A stretch of DNA of 57,349 nucleotides, taken from NCBI GenBank assembly GCA_964645825.1, contig CAZXZY010000002.1:1-57349 (forward strand). The letters are read 5' to 3'. Source of the DNA: an uncultured Gammaproteobacteria bacterium. GTDB lineage: Bacteria > Patescibacteriota > Patescibacteriia > UBA1558 > GWA2-36-10. The position numbers were made by a program, and so were the translations under genes. Below, piece by piece: positions 38,163 through 50,893 of this stretch; the stretch's first letter is position 1, and each line of letters begins with the position of its first letter. A model generated the notes under the pieces. It did no database searches. It was not told the DNA's origin and worked only from the letters and a program-made list of their open reading frames with translations.

Positions 38163-40178
38163 CTAATAATTCAAAACTTCAATCTGATAACCGTTTTTAT
38201 CAACTGCATCGCGCAAATAAAAACTATCTTTTTCTAATCCTAAATGATCATAAATTTTTAATAATGTTGCAGATCCCTTATGTGGGATGGCTAAAATCTC
38301 TGGCCAACCATCTCCCGATAAATCACGGACCGCAATCTCAAGCCCAGACCTAAGGCTACTGGTAAAGCCAGTAAATTGCCCTTTTAGCCTGCCTTTCATG
38401 CTAAACATTTTAATATCAGCAATTTGACTTTCAGCTGGCACAGTCACTATCTCTTGCCAGCCATCATTATTGACATCGCCAATACTTATATTCACCGCGT
38501 GATTAGTCTCGTAAGGTATAAAGCTGCCTTTGATACGACGATATTGATCAAAAACTTTGACCTCACCTACTCCGATACTATTCACAGTTACTATTTCATC
38601 TTTATCATCATTATTGACATCACCAACCGCAATATTCACACCACCAAAATAATCATCATCATAAGCAAAAAATTGTCGGCGCAAATTTCCTTGCCAATCG
38701 AAAACTCTAATATGTGGCCCACCATTTGATAAGGGCGCAGTAATAATATTGAGCTGTCCATCACCCGTCACGTCACCAACCGCAATGTTAATGCCTCCGG
38801 AAAATCTATGGTCATAGGCCATAAACTCAGACAAGACATTGCCACTTTCATCAAAAATACGAATATGTGGTCCACCGCCAGCTTTTGGAGCAGTAACTAT
38901 TTCTTTGACATCATCACCCGTCACATCACCAACCGCAATGTTAACACCGCCAGTAAATTTTTCAGCGTAAGCTAACCAACTATCCAACTCTTCTCCATCT
39001 TCATTTAAAATAAAAATCTGTGGTGCAAGACCTTTGTCTGGTGCTAAAATAATATGTCGAGCTTGATTATAACGACTAGCTGCTAAATTTAATGCTCCGC
39101 CAACATCAATGGAGCCGGCTCCTAAATCTAAGTAAGTTAGTGGATTAGCTGATTGCAAACTCTGAGCACTAGATTTGATAATATTGTAAATATCATATGG
39201 TCTGAATTGTGGATACTGCATTTTAATCAAGGCAGCAGTGGCTGCTACTACTGGAGCCGCTACCGAAGTCCCCGACCAACCACCAGCATAATATTCAGTA
39301 AATTGATCATCATTGTTGTCTTGATAAACAGTAGAATAAAAATGCTTACCAGGCGCGGAGATATCAATGCAATTTTGTCCAAAATTAGAGAAATCAGCTA
39401 ACACGCTATTCTGATCAACAGCAGCTACACCCAATACCCTATTAACATCATCTATTTCACATACTGGATAACGTGGGTCAGCATCCAAATCTATGCCCAA
39501 TGCTGCTTCATTACCCGAAGCTGCTACAATGACTACACCACTATCATAAGCATCTCTAATAGAACCTTTTAATGTTTCATCATAACTGGAACCTACCAAA
39601 CTTAAGTTGATAACATCTGCTCCATTTTCTACAGCATAGTCAATCGCCTGAGCTAATACCAAAGTATTTCCCTGACCATTTGGATCTAAAATACGTAAAG
39701 GCATAATTTTTACTTGTGGCGCAATGCCAACTATACCATTGTTATTCCTACTAGCTGCAATTACACCGGCGATAACGGTCCCATGATTAACGGCTACTCG
39801 ATCATATCCAGGGATTATTTCTGGTTCAGGAATATTATCGCTATCTATAAAATCCCAACCAACATTATCATCAATATAACTATTAAAATCATCATCTAAG
39901 CCATTACCCGCCACTTCACCATGATTTGACCATAAATTGTCAACTAAATCCGGATGATTTAAGTCAACGCCAGAATCCAAAACAGCTACTACTACTTCTT
40001 TGTTTGTTTGCAAGTCATTAGACCAAGTCGGCTCAATATTTATCAAATTAAAATAATCTTGATAAACCCGACCAGGATCTAAAGGCACATAATCTTGGCT
40101 AAAAGCCTGAGTTTTATGAGCATAAAATACGCATAAACTAAAACTAATAAAAGTTAGAAATAAAATTCTTTTAAACAC
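38163..40178 (-). CDS. Secreted subtilisin-like (S8) serine protease with five C-terminal FG-GAP/VCBS-like repeats
   Basis: Catalytic triad contexts VAVLDSGVD, NHGTVIAGVIAA and SGTSVAAPVVAATAAL. Five repeats of GG(V/I)NIAVGDV(T/N)GD..EI(V/I)T(A/V)P..GGPHIR(I/V)FD. Confidence 0.88.
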   Translation of the reverse strand: MFKRILFLTFISFSLCVFYAHKTQAFSQDYVPLDPGRVYQDYFNLINIEPTWSNDLQTNKEVVVAVLDSGVDLNHPDLVDNLWSNHGEVAGNGLDDDFNSYIDDNVGWDFIDSDNIPEPEIIPGYDRVAVNHGTVIAGVIAASRNNNGIVGIAPQVKIMPLRILDPNGQGNTLVLAQAIDYAVENGADVINLSLVGSSYDETLKGSIRDAYDSGVVIVAASGNEAALGIDLDADPRYPVCEIDDVNRVLGVAAVDQNSVLADFSNFGQNCIDISAPGKHFYSTVYQDNNDDQFTEYYAGGWSGTSVAAPVVAATAALIKMQYPQFRPYDIYNIIKSSAQSLQSANPLTYLDLGAGSIDVGGALNLAASRYNQARHIILAPDKGLAPQIFILNEDGEELDSWLAYAEKFTGGVNIAVGDVTGDDVKEIVTAPKAGGGPHIRIFDESGNVLSEFMAYDHRFSGGINIAVGDVTGDGQLNIITAPLSNGGPHIRVFDWQGNLRRQFFAYDDDYFGGVNIAVGDVNNDDKDEIVTVNSIGVGEVKVFDQYRRIKGSFIPYETNHAVNISIGDVNNDGWQEIVTVPAESQIADIKMFSMKGRLKGQFTGFTSSLRSGLEIAVRDLSGDGWPEILAIPHKGSATLLKIYDHLGLEKDSFYLRDAVDKNGYQIEVLNY

Positions 40179-41295: not shown

Positions 41296-42225
41296 TTAGA
41301 TAATAAAATATAAGCCCATGCTAATTAAAATCACGGCTAAGATTTTTTGAATAATAATCATTTTAGACACATTTTCTTTTAATAATTTTGGAAAGAAAGC
41401 TGAAATCAAACCACCCAAGACTAACAAAAATGCATACTGCACGCCTTGCAAGGCATTTACTATGGCAACCGAGCCTAAGAAAATAGCATAATTTTGTAAT
41501 AAAAATCCTATAGCCGCAATACCTTGATTAGAAAAAAACAAGGCGCTATTTTTATGTTTCAAAGATTTTAGGCCATGAAAAATCTCTTTTCGTACTTTTC
41601 TAGGAATAAGTAAAGATAAAGTAGCTAAAAATGTACCAATTCGGATCCAAATAAAACTACTCAAAAATGGCTGACTATCATACAAAAATTTACTACCGAC
41701 GAAAAAGATAGCAAAAACTATACCGGCAGCAATGGCAGTGATGACTGCTGTTTTATTTTTTGTTCCCTTCAATCCAAACCAATGCAACATCTTGGACCAC
41801 AAAGTATTACTAGCTGGTAAATAAGCTAACATAACTGTACCTAGCAATAAATAAATAATAGCTACCCATTGCATGGTCAAAAATCTTTCTCCTAAAAATA
41901 GATAAGCTAACAAGATGGTAAAAATTGGCACTACACCGCCAATTAATGGGATAATTTTGGAAGCATCACCAATTTTAAGTGATCGATATAATAACAATAA
42001 AGCTCCTGGAAATAAAGCACCAACTAAAAGATTGCCTAACAACAGGGAAACTCCCGGCCAAGTTAAAAACCACGGAGCAATAACAATGACTATCAAGCCC
42101 ATGGCACCCACTAAAAAAGTGTAAGTTTTAGCACTAGGAACTACATTTTCTAATAAAAATTTATCTGCAAGATTTACAACTGCTAAAATCAAATAAGCAG
42201 CAATGGCAATGGCTAACCAATCCAT
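41296..42225 (-). CDS. EamA/DMT superfamily transporter
   Basis: 309 aa with about 10 TM helices in two similar halves. Confidence 0.6.
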   Translation of the reverse strand: MDWLAIAIAAYLILAVVNLADKFLLENVVPSAKTYTFLVGAMGLIVIVIAPWFLTWPGVSLLLGNLLVGALFPGALLLLYRSLKIGDASKIIPLIGGVVPIFTILLAYLFLGERFLTMQWVAIIYLLLGTVMLAYLPASNTLWSKMLHWFGLKGTKNKTAVITAIAAGIVFAIFFVGSKFLYDSQPFLSSFIWIRIGTFLATLSLLIPRKVRKEIFHGLKSLKHKNSALFFSNQGIAAIGFLLQNYAIFLGSVAIVNALQGVQYAFLLVLGGLISAFFPKLLKENVSKMIIIQKILAVILISMGLYFII

Positions 42226-42274
42226 AAAATTTTTGTTTAATGATTGTTTATATTATATCATTTTTTGCCTAACT

Positions 42275-42303
42275 TTGACAAAAAAATCTCATCATTTTAT
42301 AAT
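42275..42303 (+). promoter_or_regulatory. Unit 1 promoter
   Basis: TTGACA (42275-80), 17-nt spacer, TATAAT (42298-303). Confidence 0.7.
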
Positions 42304-42387
42304 TATATTAATTATAGTTCTTTCAGGGATTTAAAATCCCTTATTCATATATCCTGGTCTTTTTATTTCAACACATGAGGTGATATT

Positions 42388-42435
42388 ATGAGAAAACTAC
42401 CACTGATCATCACTCTGGTAACGAACACTGGGTAA
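42388..42435 (+). CDS. Unit 1 sORF, 15 aa (MRKLPLIITLVTNTG), apparently a truncated paralogue of the unit 2 peptide
   Basis: GAGGTGA SD (42377-83) 4 nt from the ATG. A terminator follows 17 nt after the stop. Confidence 0.4.
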   Translation: MRKLPLIITLVTNTG

Positions 42436-42452
42436 AAAATCGATGGCCGTTA

Positions 42453-42484
42453 AGCCCACCTAAAGGAAGGTGGGCTATTTTTTT
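42453..42484 (+). terminator. Unit 1 intrinsic terminator
   Basis: AGCCCACC-TAAAGGAA-GGTGGGCT-ATTTTTTT. The T-run merges into the next -35. Confidence 0.8.
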
Positions 42485-42511
42485 GACAAAAAAGTAGGTT
42501 CTTTATATAAT
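42483..42511 (+). promoter_or_regulatory. Unit 2 promoter
   Basis: TTGACA (42483-88), 17-nt spacer, TATAAT (42506-11). Confidence 0.7.
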
Positions 42512-42603
42512 TAATATATTAATGTACTCTCAATTTTTTACATCAGAGGTAAAGTAGCCTCTAGATGCATCCTGGTAACTTTTTATAAAGAAAGGAGCTT
42601 CCT

Positions 42604-42732
42604 ATGAAGCGCTTACTTATTCCTCCACAGATCAAGATGATCGTCACCAACGCCGCAACGAAAAATGCCGCCGCCAACACACCGAAGCTGGACGTGGATG
42701 TAGCTGGCCGAACGCAGAGCGCGAATTGGTAA
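42604..42732 (+). CDS. Unit 2 sORF, 42 aa (MKRLLIPPQIKMIVTNAATKNAAANTPKLDVDVAGRTQSANW)
   Basis: AAGGAG SD (42592-97) 6 nt from the ATG. The ORF is GC-rich. A terminator lies 18 nt after the stop. Confidence 0.5.
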   Translation: MKRLLIPPQIKMIVTNAATKNAAANTPKLDVDVAGRTQSANW

Positions 42733-42750
42733 CAGCCCAAGCAGGACCTT

Positions 42751-42777
42751 GCCCGTCAAAAGGAGACGGGCTTTTTT
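42751..42777 (+). terminator. Unit 2 intrinsic terminator
   Basis: GCCCGTC-AAAAGGA-GACGGGC-TTTTTT. Confidence 0.85.
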
Positions 42778-42814
42778 ATTTGACTTTTCGACTTCGCTCA
42801 AGGTCTGCACAAAT

Positions 42815-42843
42815 TTGACAAAATTTTAAAGCCTAGATATACT
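42815..42843 (+). promoter_or_regulatory. Unit 3 promoter
   Basis: TTGACA (42815-20), 17-nt spacer, TATACT (42838-43). Confidence 0.65.
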
Positions 42844-42849
42844 TTATTC

Positions 42850-43034
42850 ACATTGATCATTCTTACGTCCACTTGGCTGGACACGTCACTTCTGCCGTAT
42901 ATTAAGTAACATTCACTTAACACTTCCACTTTGACCACTACTTCCTACTTAGGCAGAAGCAAGCATCCCTACACCCATTAGGTGTAATCAAACGTCATGC
43001 GCCCGTTGAGAAATCGATGGGCGCTTATTTTTTT
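42850..43034 (+). ncRNA. Unit 3: candidate ~185-nt structured small RNA (no SD-preceded ORF)
   Basis: Hairpins GTCCA-N6-TGGAC (42868-83) and ACACC-N5-GGTGT. Long-range stem CTTCTGCC (42889-96)/GGCAGAAG (42952-59) encloses a C/U-rich stretch. Terminator GCGCCCGTTGA-GAAA-TCGATGGGCGC plus T-run (42999-43034). Confidence 0.5.
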
Positions 43035-43042
43035 CAAAGCTC

Positions 43043-43071
43043 TTGACAAAAGCTGAGAAATAGTGTAGATT
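43043..43071 (+). promoter_or_regulatory. Unit 4 promoter
   Basis: TTGACA (43043-48), 17-nt spacer, TAGATT (43066-71). Confidence 0.6.
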
Positions 43072-43077
43072 ATCATT

Positions 43078-43206
43078 CTTCGCTCCTTACTTACCCATAT
43101 GCATCAGATCCTGGTGACTCTCCTGATAGCTGTGTGTGACAAAGATGCAGCCAAGTGCTTGCATCGCTGTGCTTACCCGCTGAACTAGATTCGGCGGGTA
43201 TTTTTT
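43078..43206 (+). ncRNA. Unit 4: candidate ~130-nt small RNA with 5' anti-SD motif; contains an SD-less 29-aa ORF (43099-43188, MHQILVTLLIAVCDKDAAKCLHRCAYPLN)
   Basis: 5' CGCTCCTTACTT. Hairpin GATGCAGC-CAAGT-GCtTGCATC (43144-65). Terminator TACCCGCTGAA-CTAGA-TTCGGCGGGTA-TTTTTT (43174-206). Confidence 0.5.
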
Positions 43207-43255
43207 ATTAAAATAGCTAATATTAGCTAAAATAATAAGGTAGTACCTAATGGAC

Positions 43256-43284
43256 TTGACAAATTATGCATAGTATGCTTAATG
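43256..43284 (+). promoter_or_regulatory. Unit 5 promoter (extended -10 type)
   Basis: TTGACA (43256-61), a 17-nt spacer ending in TGC, then TTAATG. The TATGCATA palindrome lies in the spacer. Confidence 0.5.
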
Positions 43285-43331
43285 TTCTATTAAGCTCATT
43301 GATACAATCACATCCATTTAGGAGTAGCCTC

Positions 43332-43451
43332 ATGATTAACTGGTTTCTGACCAGGCTTTTCCGGCCTACTTCTGGATGTTCGACCCACTTGCCGGGCCCT
43401 CGCCCAAACAGCAAACCGCGCATTGATTTGCGCTACGAACATCCGGATTAG
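43332..43451 (+). CDS. Unit 5 sORF, 39 aa (MINWFLTRLFRPTSGCSTHLPGPRPNSKPRIDLRYEHPD)
   Basis: AGGAG (43320-24) 7 nt upstream of the ATG. The longer track ORF would start inside the promoter. Confidence 0.4.
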   Translation: MINWFLTRLFRPTSGCSTHLPGPRPNSKPRIDLRYEHPD

Positions 43452-43645
43452 TTAAGTGATCTGACGACAATCCTTCAAATTCCCTGGAGAAGTCAATGCG
43501 ACACCTTTACCCTCCGTAGATCTACAAGGAGAGCCAAGACTCTCTGTAAGTAATTCACTGAGGCACCACAAGGTCGCCACTCCAACTCAATCCAGACAAC
43601 GCCGGAGGCAAAATGCCCCACAGGAAAATCGCCCCCCTGAATCTT

Positions 43646-43680
43646 GCCGCTGTGTACGACGTACGCAGCGGCCTTTTCTT
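43646..43680 (+). terminator. Unit 5 intrinsic terminator
   Basis: GCCGCTGTGTAC-GAC-GTACGCAGCGGC (12-bp stem) followed by CTTTTCTT. Confidence 0.8.
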
Positions 43681-43691
43681 ATATTTAAAAC

Positions 43692-43727
43692 AAAAACAGC
43701 CCTGAATAATATAGGACTGTTTTTTTA
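43692..43727. terminator. Bidirectional terminator (serves the OLD gene on the minus strand)
   Basis: AAAAACAGcCC-TGAATAATATA-GGaCTGTTTTTTT. Confidence 0.55.
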
Positions 43728-43778
43728 TTTAGGCACCACAAATACATGATTCCATGATCTTTATGACTAATGATTGAA

Positions 43779-45116
43779 TTATAAAGCTTGAATTACCTCT
43801 TTGAGGGGTCGCATTATTTTAGAATTAAAATCCGTTTTAGTGATAGCGGTTGCGGCATACAAAGCATTTAGTGTTTTCTTATCATCACGTTGATATTTTT
43901 TTGGATAATGCCTTTCAATAGAGCCAGATGGTAAAACAAAAACTTTATGTTCTTTAAGTTCTATGATTATATCATTAGCCTTATGTGCTTTAAGTTTTAT
44001 ATCTAAACGGCTTACCACTCTATCTAGTTGATATTTTATAATATCTCTATCCGCTAAAATAATATAGTTAATATTAAAAATTTTTAATAAATCTACATAC
44101 AAAGCGATGTTGCCTTTACCATGTGTCTGGACGACTTTGATATCTCTATCTCCCTGATAAAAACGATCTATTAAACCACGTAATAATATACGATCTGAAA
44201 TACCTTCTACTAAAACTGCTGTATCAGCAAATAACATTTCAACATTATCAGCGTTTAATTCTTGTATCAGACGCTTGTAACTATAGTGCTGTTTTTTAAT
44301 TGGCAAACCAAAGGCTTTGGTGCTGTCAGCATCTTTTATTACTCGCAATACTTGCGGCAAAGTAACAGAGTTGATAAATAAAGGTGAATGAGTAGAAAAT
44401 AAAATTTGTCCTCCACCCTCGGCATTTTGCATGGCCCACAAAAGTTTTTTGACCAAAACTGGATGAAGATGAGTCTCCGGTTCATCCAAAATAACTATCT
44501 GATAGTCAGGATGAAAAATATATAATAGTATAACAAAAATCCTTCTAAACCCAGAACCCAGGTGATCAATGGTGGCTTTACGTGTTCCTTCTTTGATGCC
44601 AGCATGCTCATAATGAATATCTAGTGCGTTTTCTTTGGCACTGATTTTTGGAAAATGATTTTTCAAATGTTGCTTAAATAAATTTAAACTTTCTTTGTGT
44701 TCTTGTAATGTCTTCCAATCTCTATCTATATCATCAAGATCATTAAAAGCATCATAATTAAGATGTTTTATTTTAGTTGATAATAATGCTTTTAATTCTC
44801 CTCTATAATTTGTAATCTGATTTGGAAATGCTAATTTTCTTTGTTCATTTTTGATAGTTAGGCTAGCTTTCCTGGCTGGCAGATTCCATTCGTTAGCCTC
44901 TTCCTCAGTAAAACTAAGTTCTGCCTCTATATCGGCTTCTGGGTACTCCAAAATCGGACTGACTCCCTGCACATCAAAAAGATAATCAATGGCATATAAA
45001 ATATTACTCTTACCACAATTATTTTGACCAATCAAAATATTAACCGGTAGCGTAGAAAAACTGATCGGCTGTTTAATACTTTTGTACAAATTAATATGTA
45101 GAGTAGTAATTTTCAT
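43779..45116 (-). CDS. OLD-family ATP-dependent endonuclease (ABC/AAA ATPase + Toprim)
   Basis: Walker A ILIGQNNCGKSNILYAI, Walker B VILDEPETHLHP, FSTHSP, Toprim Glu AVLVEGISDRILL, and acidic ILADRD. Confidence 0.8.
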   Translation of the reverse strand: MKITTLHINLYKSIKQPISFSTLPVNILIGQNNCGKSNILYAIDYLFDVQGVSPILEYPEADIEAELSFTEEEANEWNLPARKASLTIKNEQRKLAFPNQITNYRGELKALLSTKIKHLNYDAFNDLDDIDRDWKTLQEHKESLNLFKQHLKNHFPKISAKENALDIHYEHAGIKEGTRKATIDHLGSGFRRIFVILLYIFHPDYQIVILDEPETHLHPVLVKKLLWAMQNAEGGGQILFSTHSPLFINSVTLPQVLRVIKDADSTKAFGLPIKKQHYSYKRLIQELNADNVEMLFADTAVLVEGISDRILLRGLIDRFYQGDRDIKVVQTHGKGNIALYVDLLKIFNINYIILADRDIIKYQLDRVVSRLDIKLKAHKANDIIIELKEHKVFVLPSGSIERHYPKKYQRDDKKTLNALYAATAITKTDFNSKIMRPLKEVIQAL

Positions 45117-49885: not shown

Positions 49886-50893
49886 CTATTTGTTGACTTT
49901 TTTAAAAAATCCTAGTTTAGCTCGATCTCGATATTGTGGCTTATATAAGCCTAAAAAATCAATAATCCCTTGTGGTGACAAATCATATCCTGTAACTTCT
50001 ACTGTCTTTTTTCCATCCAATAAAGCTGTAGCCATAACTGGTTCCTTGTGGCCAATAGCATAAGCTAATTTAACAATAACTTCTTTTGCTTGGTATTTTT
50101 TTAAATACTCTATGGCCAAAAATCTAGCCATATAAGCTGCTGATCGATCAACTTTTGAAGGATCTTTACCAGAAAAAGCTCCACCACCGACAGGCACTTG
50201 TGGACCATAATTGTCTATGGTTATTTTACGTCCAGTCAATCCAGTGTCAGCTGTAAAACCGCCAACAACAAAAATTCCAGTTGGATTAATATGAACTTCT
50301 TCATAGTTAGGAATTATTGGATCAATTACCTCTTTAATAATCAATTTGCGCAAAACATCTTGATTAATATTTTTTGAATGCTGAGTAGATAAAACAACAG
50401 TCTTTACTTTGTCATTTTCTAAAGTGACTTGTGCCTTGCCATCTGGACCTAAAAATTGTGATAATTGATTATCCTTATCAGCTCTTACTTTTTCTAAACG
50501 ACGAATAAGCTTGGCAGCTAAAACATGCTCAAGCGGTAAAAGCTCTTTGGTCTCTGTTGTAGCATAACCAATCATAATACCTTGATCACCAGCGCCACCA
50601 ATATCAACTCCTTGAGCAATGTCTGGACTCTGATGAACCAAATTTACCGAAATATCAAGTTCGTCACTATAACCAATCTCTTGATAAACTTGCCTGGCAA
50701 TTTTAGCAACATCTATTTTGGCTGTGGTGGTCAACTCACCTATAATAAATAATTTTCCATGCCCACCTACAGTTTCCACAGCTACACGACTATTTAGATC
50801 TTGTCGCAAACACTCATCTAAAATAGCATCTGATATTTGATCACAAACTTTATCTGGGTGTCCCCAAGTCACATTCTCTGCTGTTTTTAACAT
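49886..50893 (-). CDS. metK: S-adenosylmethionine synthetase (short, 335 aa)
   Basis: GHPDKVCDQISDAILD ... GAGDQGIMIGYA ... GGGAFSGKDPSKVDRSAAYMAR. Confidence 0.92.
   Translation of the reverse strand: MLKTAENVTWGHPDKVCDQISDAILDECLRQDLNSRVAVETVGGHGKLFIIGELTTTAKIDVAKIARQVYQEIGYSDELDISVNLVHQSPDIAQGVDIGGAGDQGIMIGYATTETKELLPLEHVLAAKLIRRLEKVRADKDNQLSQFLGPDGKAQVTLENDKVKTVVLSTQHSKNINQDVLRKLIIKEVIDPIIPNYEEVHINPTGIFVVGGFTADTGLTGRKITIDNYGPQVPVGGGAFSGKDPSKVDRSAAYMARFLAIEYLKKYQAKEVIVKLAYAIGHKEPVMATALLDGKKTVEVTGYDLSPQGIIDFLGLYKPQYRDRAKLGFFKKVNK

Follow-up and report, generated by a model that had tools for sequence, protein, structure and literature searches.

A putative small-protein gene and its apparent truncated paralogue in a cluster of five tandem mini-units of a Patescibacteriota genome

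The window analysed here is a 57,349-nt stretch of an uncultured Patescibacteriota bacterium (contig CAZXZY010000002.1). Within it, a spacer of 1.55 kb (42226–43778) separates an EamA-family transporter gene on one side from an OLD-type ATPase/Toprim gene on the other. Five small units fill this spacer in tandem, all on the + strand, and each has a match to a sigma-70-type promoter and an intrinsic terminator. Units 1 and 2 are the subject of this report. Both contain a small open reading frame (sORF), of 15 codons in unit 1 and of 42 codons in unit 2. An initial annotation, made from the letters of the DNA, described the two units as paralogues whose sORFs show a coding-type substitution pattern. 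The features of the two units are as follows.

42275–42303, + strand: unit 1 promoter, TTGACA-17-TATAAT, 12/12 match to the consensus; family D1, sharing 78% identity over 32 nt with the promoter of unit 2.
42325–42341, + strand: unit 1 5′-proximal stem-loop, AGGGAT-N5-ATCCCT, which folds as 7 bp with a 3-nt loop.
42351–42366, + strand: unit 1 ATCCTGGT box followed by TTTTTAT (ATCCTGGTCTTTTTAT).
42377–42383, + strand: unit 1 Shine–Dalgarno-like GAGGTGA, 4 nt before the ATG at 42388.
42388–42435, + strand: unit 1 sORF, 15 codons and a stop (MRKLPLIITLVTNTG*), corresponding to the N-terminal part of the unit 2 frame; apparent truncated paralogue.
42453–42484, + strand: unit 1 intrinsic terminator, a 9-bp stem (42453–42476) followed by a T run.
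42483–42511, + strand: unit 2 promoter, TTGACA-17-TATAAT, 12/12 match to the consensus, conserved in the sister species.
42545–42562, + strand: unit 2 5′-proximal stem-loop, AGAGG-N8-CCTCT; in the sister species the stem is kept and the loop changed.
42569–42586, + strand: unit 2 ATCCTGGTAAC box followed by TTTTTAT (ATCCTGGTAACTTTTTAT); the box reads ATCATGGCAAGC in the sister species.
42592–42597, + strand: unit 2 Shine–Dalgarno AAGGAG, 6 nt before the ATG at 42604; the sister species has GGGAG, 6 nt before a TTG.
42604–42732, + strand: unit 2 sORF, 42 codons and a stop, apparently under purifying selection relative to its orthologue; called as a protein on 12 contigs of a public collection.
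42751–42780, + strand: unit 2 intrinsic terminator (stem 42751–42771), 19 nt after the stop codon; the stem is conserved in the sister species.

The hairpins, boxes, Shine–Dalgarno motifs, reading frames, peptides and codons of the initial annotation all lie where it had placed them. The common layout that it described is also real: stem-loop, box, Shine–Dalgarno motif and ATG follow one another in the same order in both units, and a promoter and a terminator complete each of them. The predicted RNAs do not fold markedly better than shuffled sequences (unit 1, z-score −1.6, with 12/200 shuffles as good or better; unit 2, z-score −1.2, 24/200). A pairing of UCCUGG with CAGGA between the 5′ and 3′ parts of unit 2, seen in its minimum-free-energy fold, was dropped; on inspection by eye, the changed box of the sister species has no complementary partner. 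On the upstream side, the −35 element of the unit 1 promoter (42275–42280, + strand) overlaps face to face with the −35 element (42281–42276) of a promoter-like site of the EamA gene on the minus strand (42281–42252). The stretch containing this overlap, 42252–42303, is conserved in the sister species.

The sister species is a genome of the same genus, G001 (loci L002, L013 and L015; L013 is a metagenome locus and L015 the genome locus). When the DNA of 42300–43700 (1401 nt) was searched against 40 relatives, G001 alone matched units 1 or 2, with 77% identity over 42482–42684. The other matches were short AT-rich strings of 20–63 nt, mostly to a palindrome at 43200–43240. The corresponding spacer of the sister species is about 470–474 nt long; its only unit is the orthologue of unit 2, which occupies the same position. 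Because the sequence upstream of unit 1 runs straight into this orthologue, unit 1 is absent from G001 by exactly the 208-nt period that separates the two units here. The same joint, from 42286 to 42495, is shared by G001 and one metagenome contig (from one of four seawater runs), which then continues to match G001.

The orthologue allowed the coding status of unit 2 to be assessed. Its frame is open over 42 codons and begins with TTG, and the Shine–Dalgarno motif stands at the same spacing from the start in both species. The two frames differ by 11 synonymous and 15 non-synonymous codon differences. In the annotated frame, the ratio of the proportions of non-synonymous and synonymous differences (pN/pS) is 0.34 (Fisher p 7e-4), compared with 0.61–2.63 (p ≥ 0.087) in the five control frames. 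The initial annotation had proposed estimating the ratio of non-synonymous to synonymous substitution rates (dN/dS) on homologues; for this pair it is 0.20 over 38 codons. In an alignment made from the DNA alone, the gaps measure 3, 3, 3, 3 and 6 nt, all multiples of three. The first 11 codons contain synonymous changes in codons 5 and 8 (CTT/CTC and CCA/CCT), which favours the upstream start over the internal ATG used in public gene calls (G001 allele P0003, 31 amino acids). These comparisons with one orthologue support purifying selection on the unit 2 frame, and the sORF is very probably translated. The coding-type selection suggested for unit 2 is thus borne out on a different basis from the three codons first cited for it. 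For the 15-residue peptide of unit 1, for which the same pattern had been claimed, it did not reach significance (see below).

The relationship between units 1 and 2 is clearest in their 5′ parts. The local alignment of the transcribed parts has a z-score of 4.4, a level reached by 0/500 dinucleotide shuffles; for the 5′ untranslated regions (UTRs) alone, the z-score is 3.5 and the score was reached by 6/500 shuffles. Over about 90 nt, the 5′ elements are collinear, with no change of order. Against about 18 expected, the 846-kb genome has 26 copies of the octamer ATCCTGGT, and three copies on the + strand fall within 42351–43115, in units 1, 2 and 4. The DNA of the reading frames, in contrast, is not significantly similar, as 85/500 shuffles reached its score. 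Paralogy is therefore supported for the promoter and 5′UTR, together with the box and the layout, and this support does not extend to the DNA of the frames. The match between CGATGGCCG and GGATGTAGCTGGCCG drawn in the initial annotation falls in the part that does not beat shuffles. A better peptide alignment than the one given there has a single in-frame 9-nt gap, MRKL---PLIITLVTN against MKRLLIPPQIKMIVTN; its score of 25 was reached by 123/5000 shuffles and by 17/4067 random 15-mers. As had been noted, unit 1 encodes the shared V-T-N by GTA-ACG-AAC and unit 2 by GTC-ACC-AAC, but three codons alone do not demonstrate selection. Over the 15 codons that can be compared, the proportions of synonymous and non-synonymous differences are 0.68 and 0.34 (Fisher p 0.09), which is a trend only.

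Several observations suggest that unit 1 is the truncated copy, as first proposed. Read directly from the aligned sequences, in-register identity (AAA AT) runs on beyond the TAA of unit 1, as would be expected if the frame had once been longer and was cut by a premature stop. Together with the shared 5′ parts and the absence of unit 1 from the sister species by the 208-nt period, this supports, in outline, the view of unit 1 as a truncated paralogue of unit 2. In the part that runs from the promoter spacer to codon 15, unit 1 shares 59% identity with unit 2 of its own genome and 60% with unit 2 of G001; between the two orthologues, identity is 77%. Since unit 1 is about equally distant from each, it appears to branch outside both. 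Either the duplication would be older than the species split, with loss of unit 1 in G001 through recombination between the repeated TTTGACAAAAAA promoters, or unit 1 would have diverged very fast.

Another way to read the similarity is that units 1 and 2 are unrelated mini-genes that share a promoter type and 5′UTR signals read by the same regulator or machinery. The frame comparisons just described, for DNA and for codons, speak for this reading, promoters of the TTTGACAAAA type are also seen at genes of the genus that are unrelated, and the box is found in unit 4 as well. Against it stand a tandem period of exactly 208 nt and a deletion of exactly that period in the sister species, elements that remain collinear over about 90 nt, a peptide alignment score that so few random 15-mers reach, and the in-register AAA AT past the stop of unit 1. 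We consider this reading unlikely.

On this evidence, we regard it as probable that unit 2 is a monocistronic small-protein gene, that unit 1 is its old, truncated tandem paralogue, and that the peptide is soluble and intracellular. A number of results weigh against this interpretation. There is one independent orthologue of unit 2, as L013 and L015 both carry the allele of G001, and the selection test is for this reason a single pairwise comparison of 38–39 codons. The reading frame of unit 2 has a third-position G+C content (GC3) of 0.67, compared with a genome mean of 0.267 (standard deviation 0.053; 597 long open reading frames). Such a value is reached by 0.075% of random 42-codon windows of long frames and is unexpected for a native coding sequence. 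The contigs of four seawater runs that cover units 1–5 offered no informative polymorphism, the sole difference being G>T at 43658. The frame of unit 1, as described above, shows no significant similarity to that of unit 2, and no family, fold or relative points to a function. The GC3 values of the unit 5 and unit 1 frames are 0.59 and 0.53, respectively, and a hand count of codons gave about 0.57 for the G001 orthologue. The GC-rich orthologue and a dS near 1 suggest that the bias has been maintained and is not recent. It could reflect RNA stability or another constraint at the RNA level, the translation of a very highly expressed message, or a foreign origin.

The base composition bears on the possibility that units 1 and 2 are non-coding small RNAs (sRNAs) like units 3 and 4, with incidental reading frames and Shine–Dalgarno-like motifs. 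In AT-rich genomes, raised G+C is typical of functional RNAs, and the G+C inside all five units is 0.5–0.6 (up to 0.60), compared with about 0.25–0.30 in the flanks. The GC3 of unit 2 is far beyond the coding range of the genome, unit 4 has the ATCCTGGT box but no ribosome-binding site, and the peptide has no relatives outside the genus. Against an RNA without a coding role stand the excess of synonymous differences in one of the six frames only, the fact that every indel is in frame, and the Shine–Dalgarno motif and start kept at equal spacing in the orthologue. Units 1 and 2 also fold no better than shuffles, and none of the units has an Rfam match: covariance models run on 42150–43850 gave nothing above noise. 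No transfer RNA (tRNA) or transfer-messenger RNA gene was found in a search for both. We therefore think it quite unlikely that the two units act as RNAs alone and continue with unit 2 as a small-protein gene.

The predicted peptide of unit 2 is better conserved in its N-terminal half (K-LLIPPQ-KM, NA--KNAANTP) than in its C-terminal half, and its N-terminus is basic (MKR and MKH in the two orthologues). There is no hydrophobic run of four or more residues in either orthologue, and the maximal 9-residue Kyte–Doolittle means are 1.18 and 0.72. AlphaFold returned a low-confidence model (predicted local distance difference test score 62.7) with one helix at residues 8–24.

The homologue search proposed in the initial annotation yielded the one orthologue, in G001, and none beyond the genus. 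Six-frame translations of 38 family genomes contained one real relative of the peptide, in G001; a match in G002 sits in another frame of a 457-codon gene, and a match in G014 has an E value of 0.2 and lies inside a long frame, and both were rejected. A word search of 5.8 billion protein clusters returned only the query itself, on the 12 contigs mentioned above. A metagenome scan found one locus, identical to G001. A profile search of 1.84 billion representatives found the query and the G001 peptide (from the internal ATG); three repetitive long proteins with E values of 3.6e-4 or weaker were discarded. No relative was found in viral contigs. In Pfam, NCBIfam, PHROG and PADLOC, no family matched both orthologues at E values up to 1, and the ESM Atlas gave unnamed clusters only (0.89–0.90). 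A blastn search of units 1–5 against their own genome found no further copy. The pattern of the 5′UTR had two matches in 400 genomes of the class, compared with two control matches; the one that was checked is the leader of an ordinary gene. Judged by these sequence searches, the peptide is an orphan that is restricted, among the collections searched, to this bacterium and its sister species.

The initial annotation saw in the basic N-terminus and polar C-terminus the general shape of an exported pro-peptide. Taken further, unit 2 might encode the precursor of a bacteriocin, a pheromone or a ribosomally synthesised and post-translationally modified peptide (RiPP), processed by an S8 protease and exported by the EamA transporter. 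The genes that bear on this are the following.

38163–40178: subtilase (S8 peptidase) with FG-GAP repeats (Pfam).
41296–42225, minus strand: EamA-family transporter gene, divergent from unit 1 (Pfam).
43779–45116, minus strand: OLD-type ATPase/Toprim gene (Pfam).

The proximity of the subtilase and the transporter, the basic N-terminus and the higher conservation of the N-terminal half are all compatible with a pro-peptide. In Sec-type export, a basic N-terminus is followed by a hydrophobic core (h-region). The peptide has the former and lacks the latter, and its mean hydropathy is low. The ten neighbouring genes were assigned by Pfam to an S8 peptidase, a weak glycosidase match, EamA, the OLD-type ATPase, DUF6938, HU and MetK, with three having no match. 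No radical-SAM, YcaO, lanthipeptide, lasso or similar maturation gene was found among them. We also examined the loci of 18 relatives, in all of which the OLD-type gene is followed by further genes on the same strand. In 11/18 loci, the OLD, EamA and glycosidase-like genes are adjacent without a peptide gene, and the EamA-like gene directly follows the OLD-type gene with a spacer of 19–166 nt. As the same neighbours are adjacent without a peptide gene in most relatives, they do not form a dedicated peptide cluster. The pro-peptide shape is thus not upheld, and we judge an exported precursor decidedly improbable. Further along the window, the sole Rfam match at gathering score is an S-adenosylmethionine (SAM) riboswitch (RF00162, 50951–51049, minus strand, 61.6 bits). 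It lies upstream of the S-adenosylmethionine synthetase gene (49886–50893), which is an ordinary arrangement.

The remaining three units of the spacer are listed below.

42815–43034, + strand: unit 3, structured sRNA candidate (−35 start 42815, terminator stem 42999–43024); no open reading frame with a ribosome-binding site; folding z-score −5.2.
43043–43208, + strand: unit 4, sRNA candidate (−35 start 43043, terminator stem 43174–43200); carries ATGCATCAGATCCTGGTGAC, related to the unit 2 box; no Shine–Dalgarno motif; folding z-score −2.8.
43257–43682, + strand: unit 5 (−35 start at about 43257, read by eye; terminator stem 43646–43672); promoter, 39-codon sORF at 43332–43451, structured 3′ part of about 230 nt, terminator.

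A scanned 3-kb region has 12 terminator-like sites, compared with 2.4 (standard deviation 1.6) in shuffles, and five of them close units 1–5. The stretch is present in 20 seawater or marine DNA runs from 17 studies, and no RNA run was among those listed for it. Unit 3 has a long C/U-rich unpaired stretch, and unit 4 combines its ATCCTGGT box with a free, anti-Shine–Dalgarno-like 5′ end. Neither has a homologue in the 40 relatives, and the sister species retains unit 2 but lacks both of them. The motif TTCGACTNCGCTCARRGTC (42785–42815) precedes unit 3 and lies just upstream of TTGACAAAAT promoters. In the sister species (L014, G001:C36, about 1495–1530 and 1766–1790), it is found beside a small unit and a tRNA gene.

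Unit 5 (about 390 nt) has a folding z-score of −5.3, and its sORF reads INWFLTR...IDLRYEHP. A homologue was identified in L016, a locus of genome G006 from another genus of the family, as the second of two units in the same orientation (L016:4209–4337, minus strand). The two have in common an upstream palindrome, a promoter and the small frame (MPTINWFLTRMLVPGCRDHKVNYPVVSTIGDIDLRHEHPRSI in L016, MINWFLTRLFRPTSGCSTHLPGPRPNSKPRIDLRYEHPD here). The sORF has a pN/pS of 0.50 (p 0.0012), and its five control frames are not significant. The peptide is present in 2/85 genomes of the order and not in G001; a word search gave no candidate, and no viral relative was found. The first unit of L016, unit A, showed no clear homology when aligned with units 2, 3 and 4, and Rfam found nothing at gathering score in the L016 spacer.

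The palindrome TAGCTAATATTAGCTA (43216–43231) precedes the promoter of unit 5. It or a close variant of it stands about 30–45 nt upstream of −35 TTGACA hexamers. It is also found upstream of unrelated genes and of small units in many genomes of the order (L003–L008, L016 and L023), and it makes up most of the short matches in 29/41 genomes of the DNA search. It has the appearance of an operator or promoter-upstream element that these genes and units share.

The spacer is variable among close relatives. Enlarged versions measure 474 nt in L015 (G001), 957 nt in L016, 842 nt in L019 and 434 nt in L023, compared with 1550 nt in this genome. In L032 and L033, a frame of 123 codons lies between the OLD-type and EamA-like genes, and L018 has a different downstream context. 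The enlarged and differing spacers, together with the unit 5 homologue in L016, suggest that this site collects small genes that come and go among close relatives. In L019, the mini-genes are replaced by a frame of 144 codons with CxxC/CxxC motifs, on the same strand as the units of the window. Just after the stop of the OLD-type gene, 5/21 loci of relatives (L015, L016, L019, L020 and L021) have a Cys-rich micro-frame (e.g. METCPNCGNDPCTCGA and MREPCTGCGTDPCTCDE). In L019, it encodes 45–48 residues and is metallothionein-like, and the window has a shortened in-frame version, MESCICGA (43730–43756, minus strand).

A broader proposal would treat the whole spacer as a hotspot at which marine ultra-small Patescibacteria gain, duplicate and lose independently transcribed, strongly expressed, GC-rich mini-genes, both for peptides (units 1, 2 and 5) and for sRNAs (units 3 and 4). 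All would form one module, and the box shared by units 1, 2 and 4, ATGCATC..CCTGGTRAC, would be a common control site. If this were true, the module may act, for example, in interaction with a host cell or a phage; we consider it improbable as it stands. That the cluster is a type I toxin–antitoxin-like or sRNA-controlled module, in which units 3 and 4 act as antisense sRNAs and block ribosome binding to the peptide messages, is very improbable. At its 5′ end, unit 4 has an unpaired stretch, GCTCCTTACTT, with complementarity to the Shine–Dalgarno region of unit 2, AAGAAAGGAGC, at 10/11 positions. But for units 3 and 4 paired with the start regions of units 1, 2 and 5, the duplex energies are ordinary (the −25.8 kcal/mol of unit 4 with unit 2 was matched or beaten by 28/100 shuffled sRNAs and 22/200 genomic start regions), the peptides are not hydrophobic membrane peptides, with no hydrophobic helix in that of unit 2, no promoter-like site lies antisense to the frames, and units 3 and 4 are missing in the sister species despite the presence of unit 2.

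We return to the preferred reading, in which unit 2 is a small-protein gene and unit 1 its truncated paralogue. Unit 2 would be transcribed independently from its consensus sigma-70-type promoter, giving a message with a 5′UTR of about 85 nt that opens with the short stem-loop. 5′ hairpins can stabilise messages, and this one may do so. Translation would start at the ATG at 42604 after AAGGAG and proceed over 42 codons, and transcription would end at the terminator 19 nt downstream. The product is predicted to be soluble, non-secreted and probably cytoplasmic; that it is a small binding or regulatory peptide is a guess. In unit 1, a stop would have cut the frame to 15 codons, and the 3′ part would have been replaced by the unit's own terminator. 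The duplication would have preceded the split of the two species, and in the sister species a deletion of 208 nt, from one of the repeated promoters to the other, would have removed unit 1. Units 1 and 2 would be members of a cluster of five mini-genes specific to this lineage, two or three of them peptide genes and the others sRNA candidates, which has built up in a spacer that is normally short.

Patescibacteria, also called the Candidate Phyla Radiation, have tiny genomes. To our knowledge, almost nothing is known about their small proteins and sRNAs, and in the part of the literature accessible to us, we found no paper about this group's small proteins or sRNA clusters. The locus offers two sORFs, in units 2 and 5, for which comparison between genomes supports translation, and a clear case of tandem-copy gain or loss between sister species. 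A spacer that measures about 20–170 nt in most relatives has expanded here to 1.55 kb filled with mini-genes. Should clusters of this kind prove common, some of the coding and regulatory sequences of these organisms would be escaping standard annotation. As the evidence stands, unit 2 adds one more orphan small-protein gene without an assigned function.

The locus can be compared with four kinds of known systems. It resembles type I toxin–antitoxin loci in having a small frame beside sRNA candidates, in an intergenic position near a defence-type (OLD family) gene. It differs from them in the non-hydrophobic peptide, in the lack of an overlapping antisense promoter and in pairing tests that are not significant. 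Attenuator leader peptides, such as the Thr operon leader (RF00506), likewise consist of a short frame with an intrinsic terminator close behind. In contrast to these, unit 2 has no co-directional structural gene downstream, as the next unit has its own promoter, and it has no runs of regulatory codons and no Rfam match. Tandemly duplicated small-gene or sRNA loci are a general phenomenon. As in such loci, units 1 and 2 stand head to tail, the duplicate has a promoter and a terminator to itself, and sister species differ in copy number. They depart from these loci in that the copies are only about 60% identical and that one has lost two thirds of its frame.

The closest comparison is with sORF-encoded small proteins. 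Such proteins of bacteria, of 50 amino acids or fewer, are listed in resources such as sORFdb (PMC11796252). Like them, unit 2 is a stand-alone reading frame with its own promoter, Shine–Dalgarno motif and terminator; it is restricted to a species or genus, has no domain and is recognised by the conservation of its frame in a close relative. It is set apart by its GC3 of 0.67 against 0.27 and by its place in a cluster of five tandem mini-units, and it is known from sequence alone. Unit 2 very probably encodes a new orphan among the sORF-encoded small proteins of bacteria, in a family of two members.

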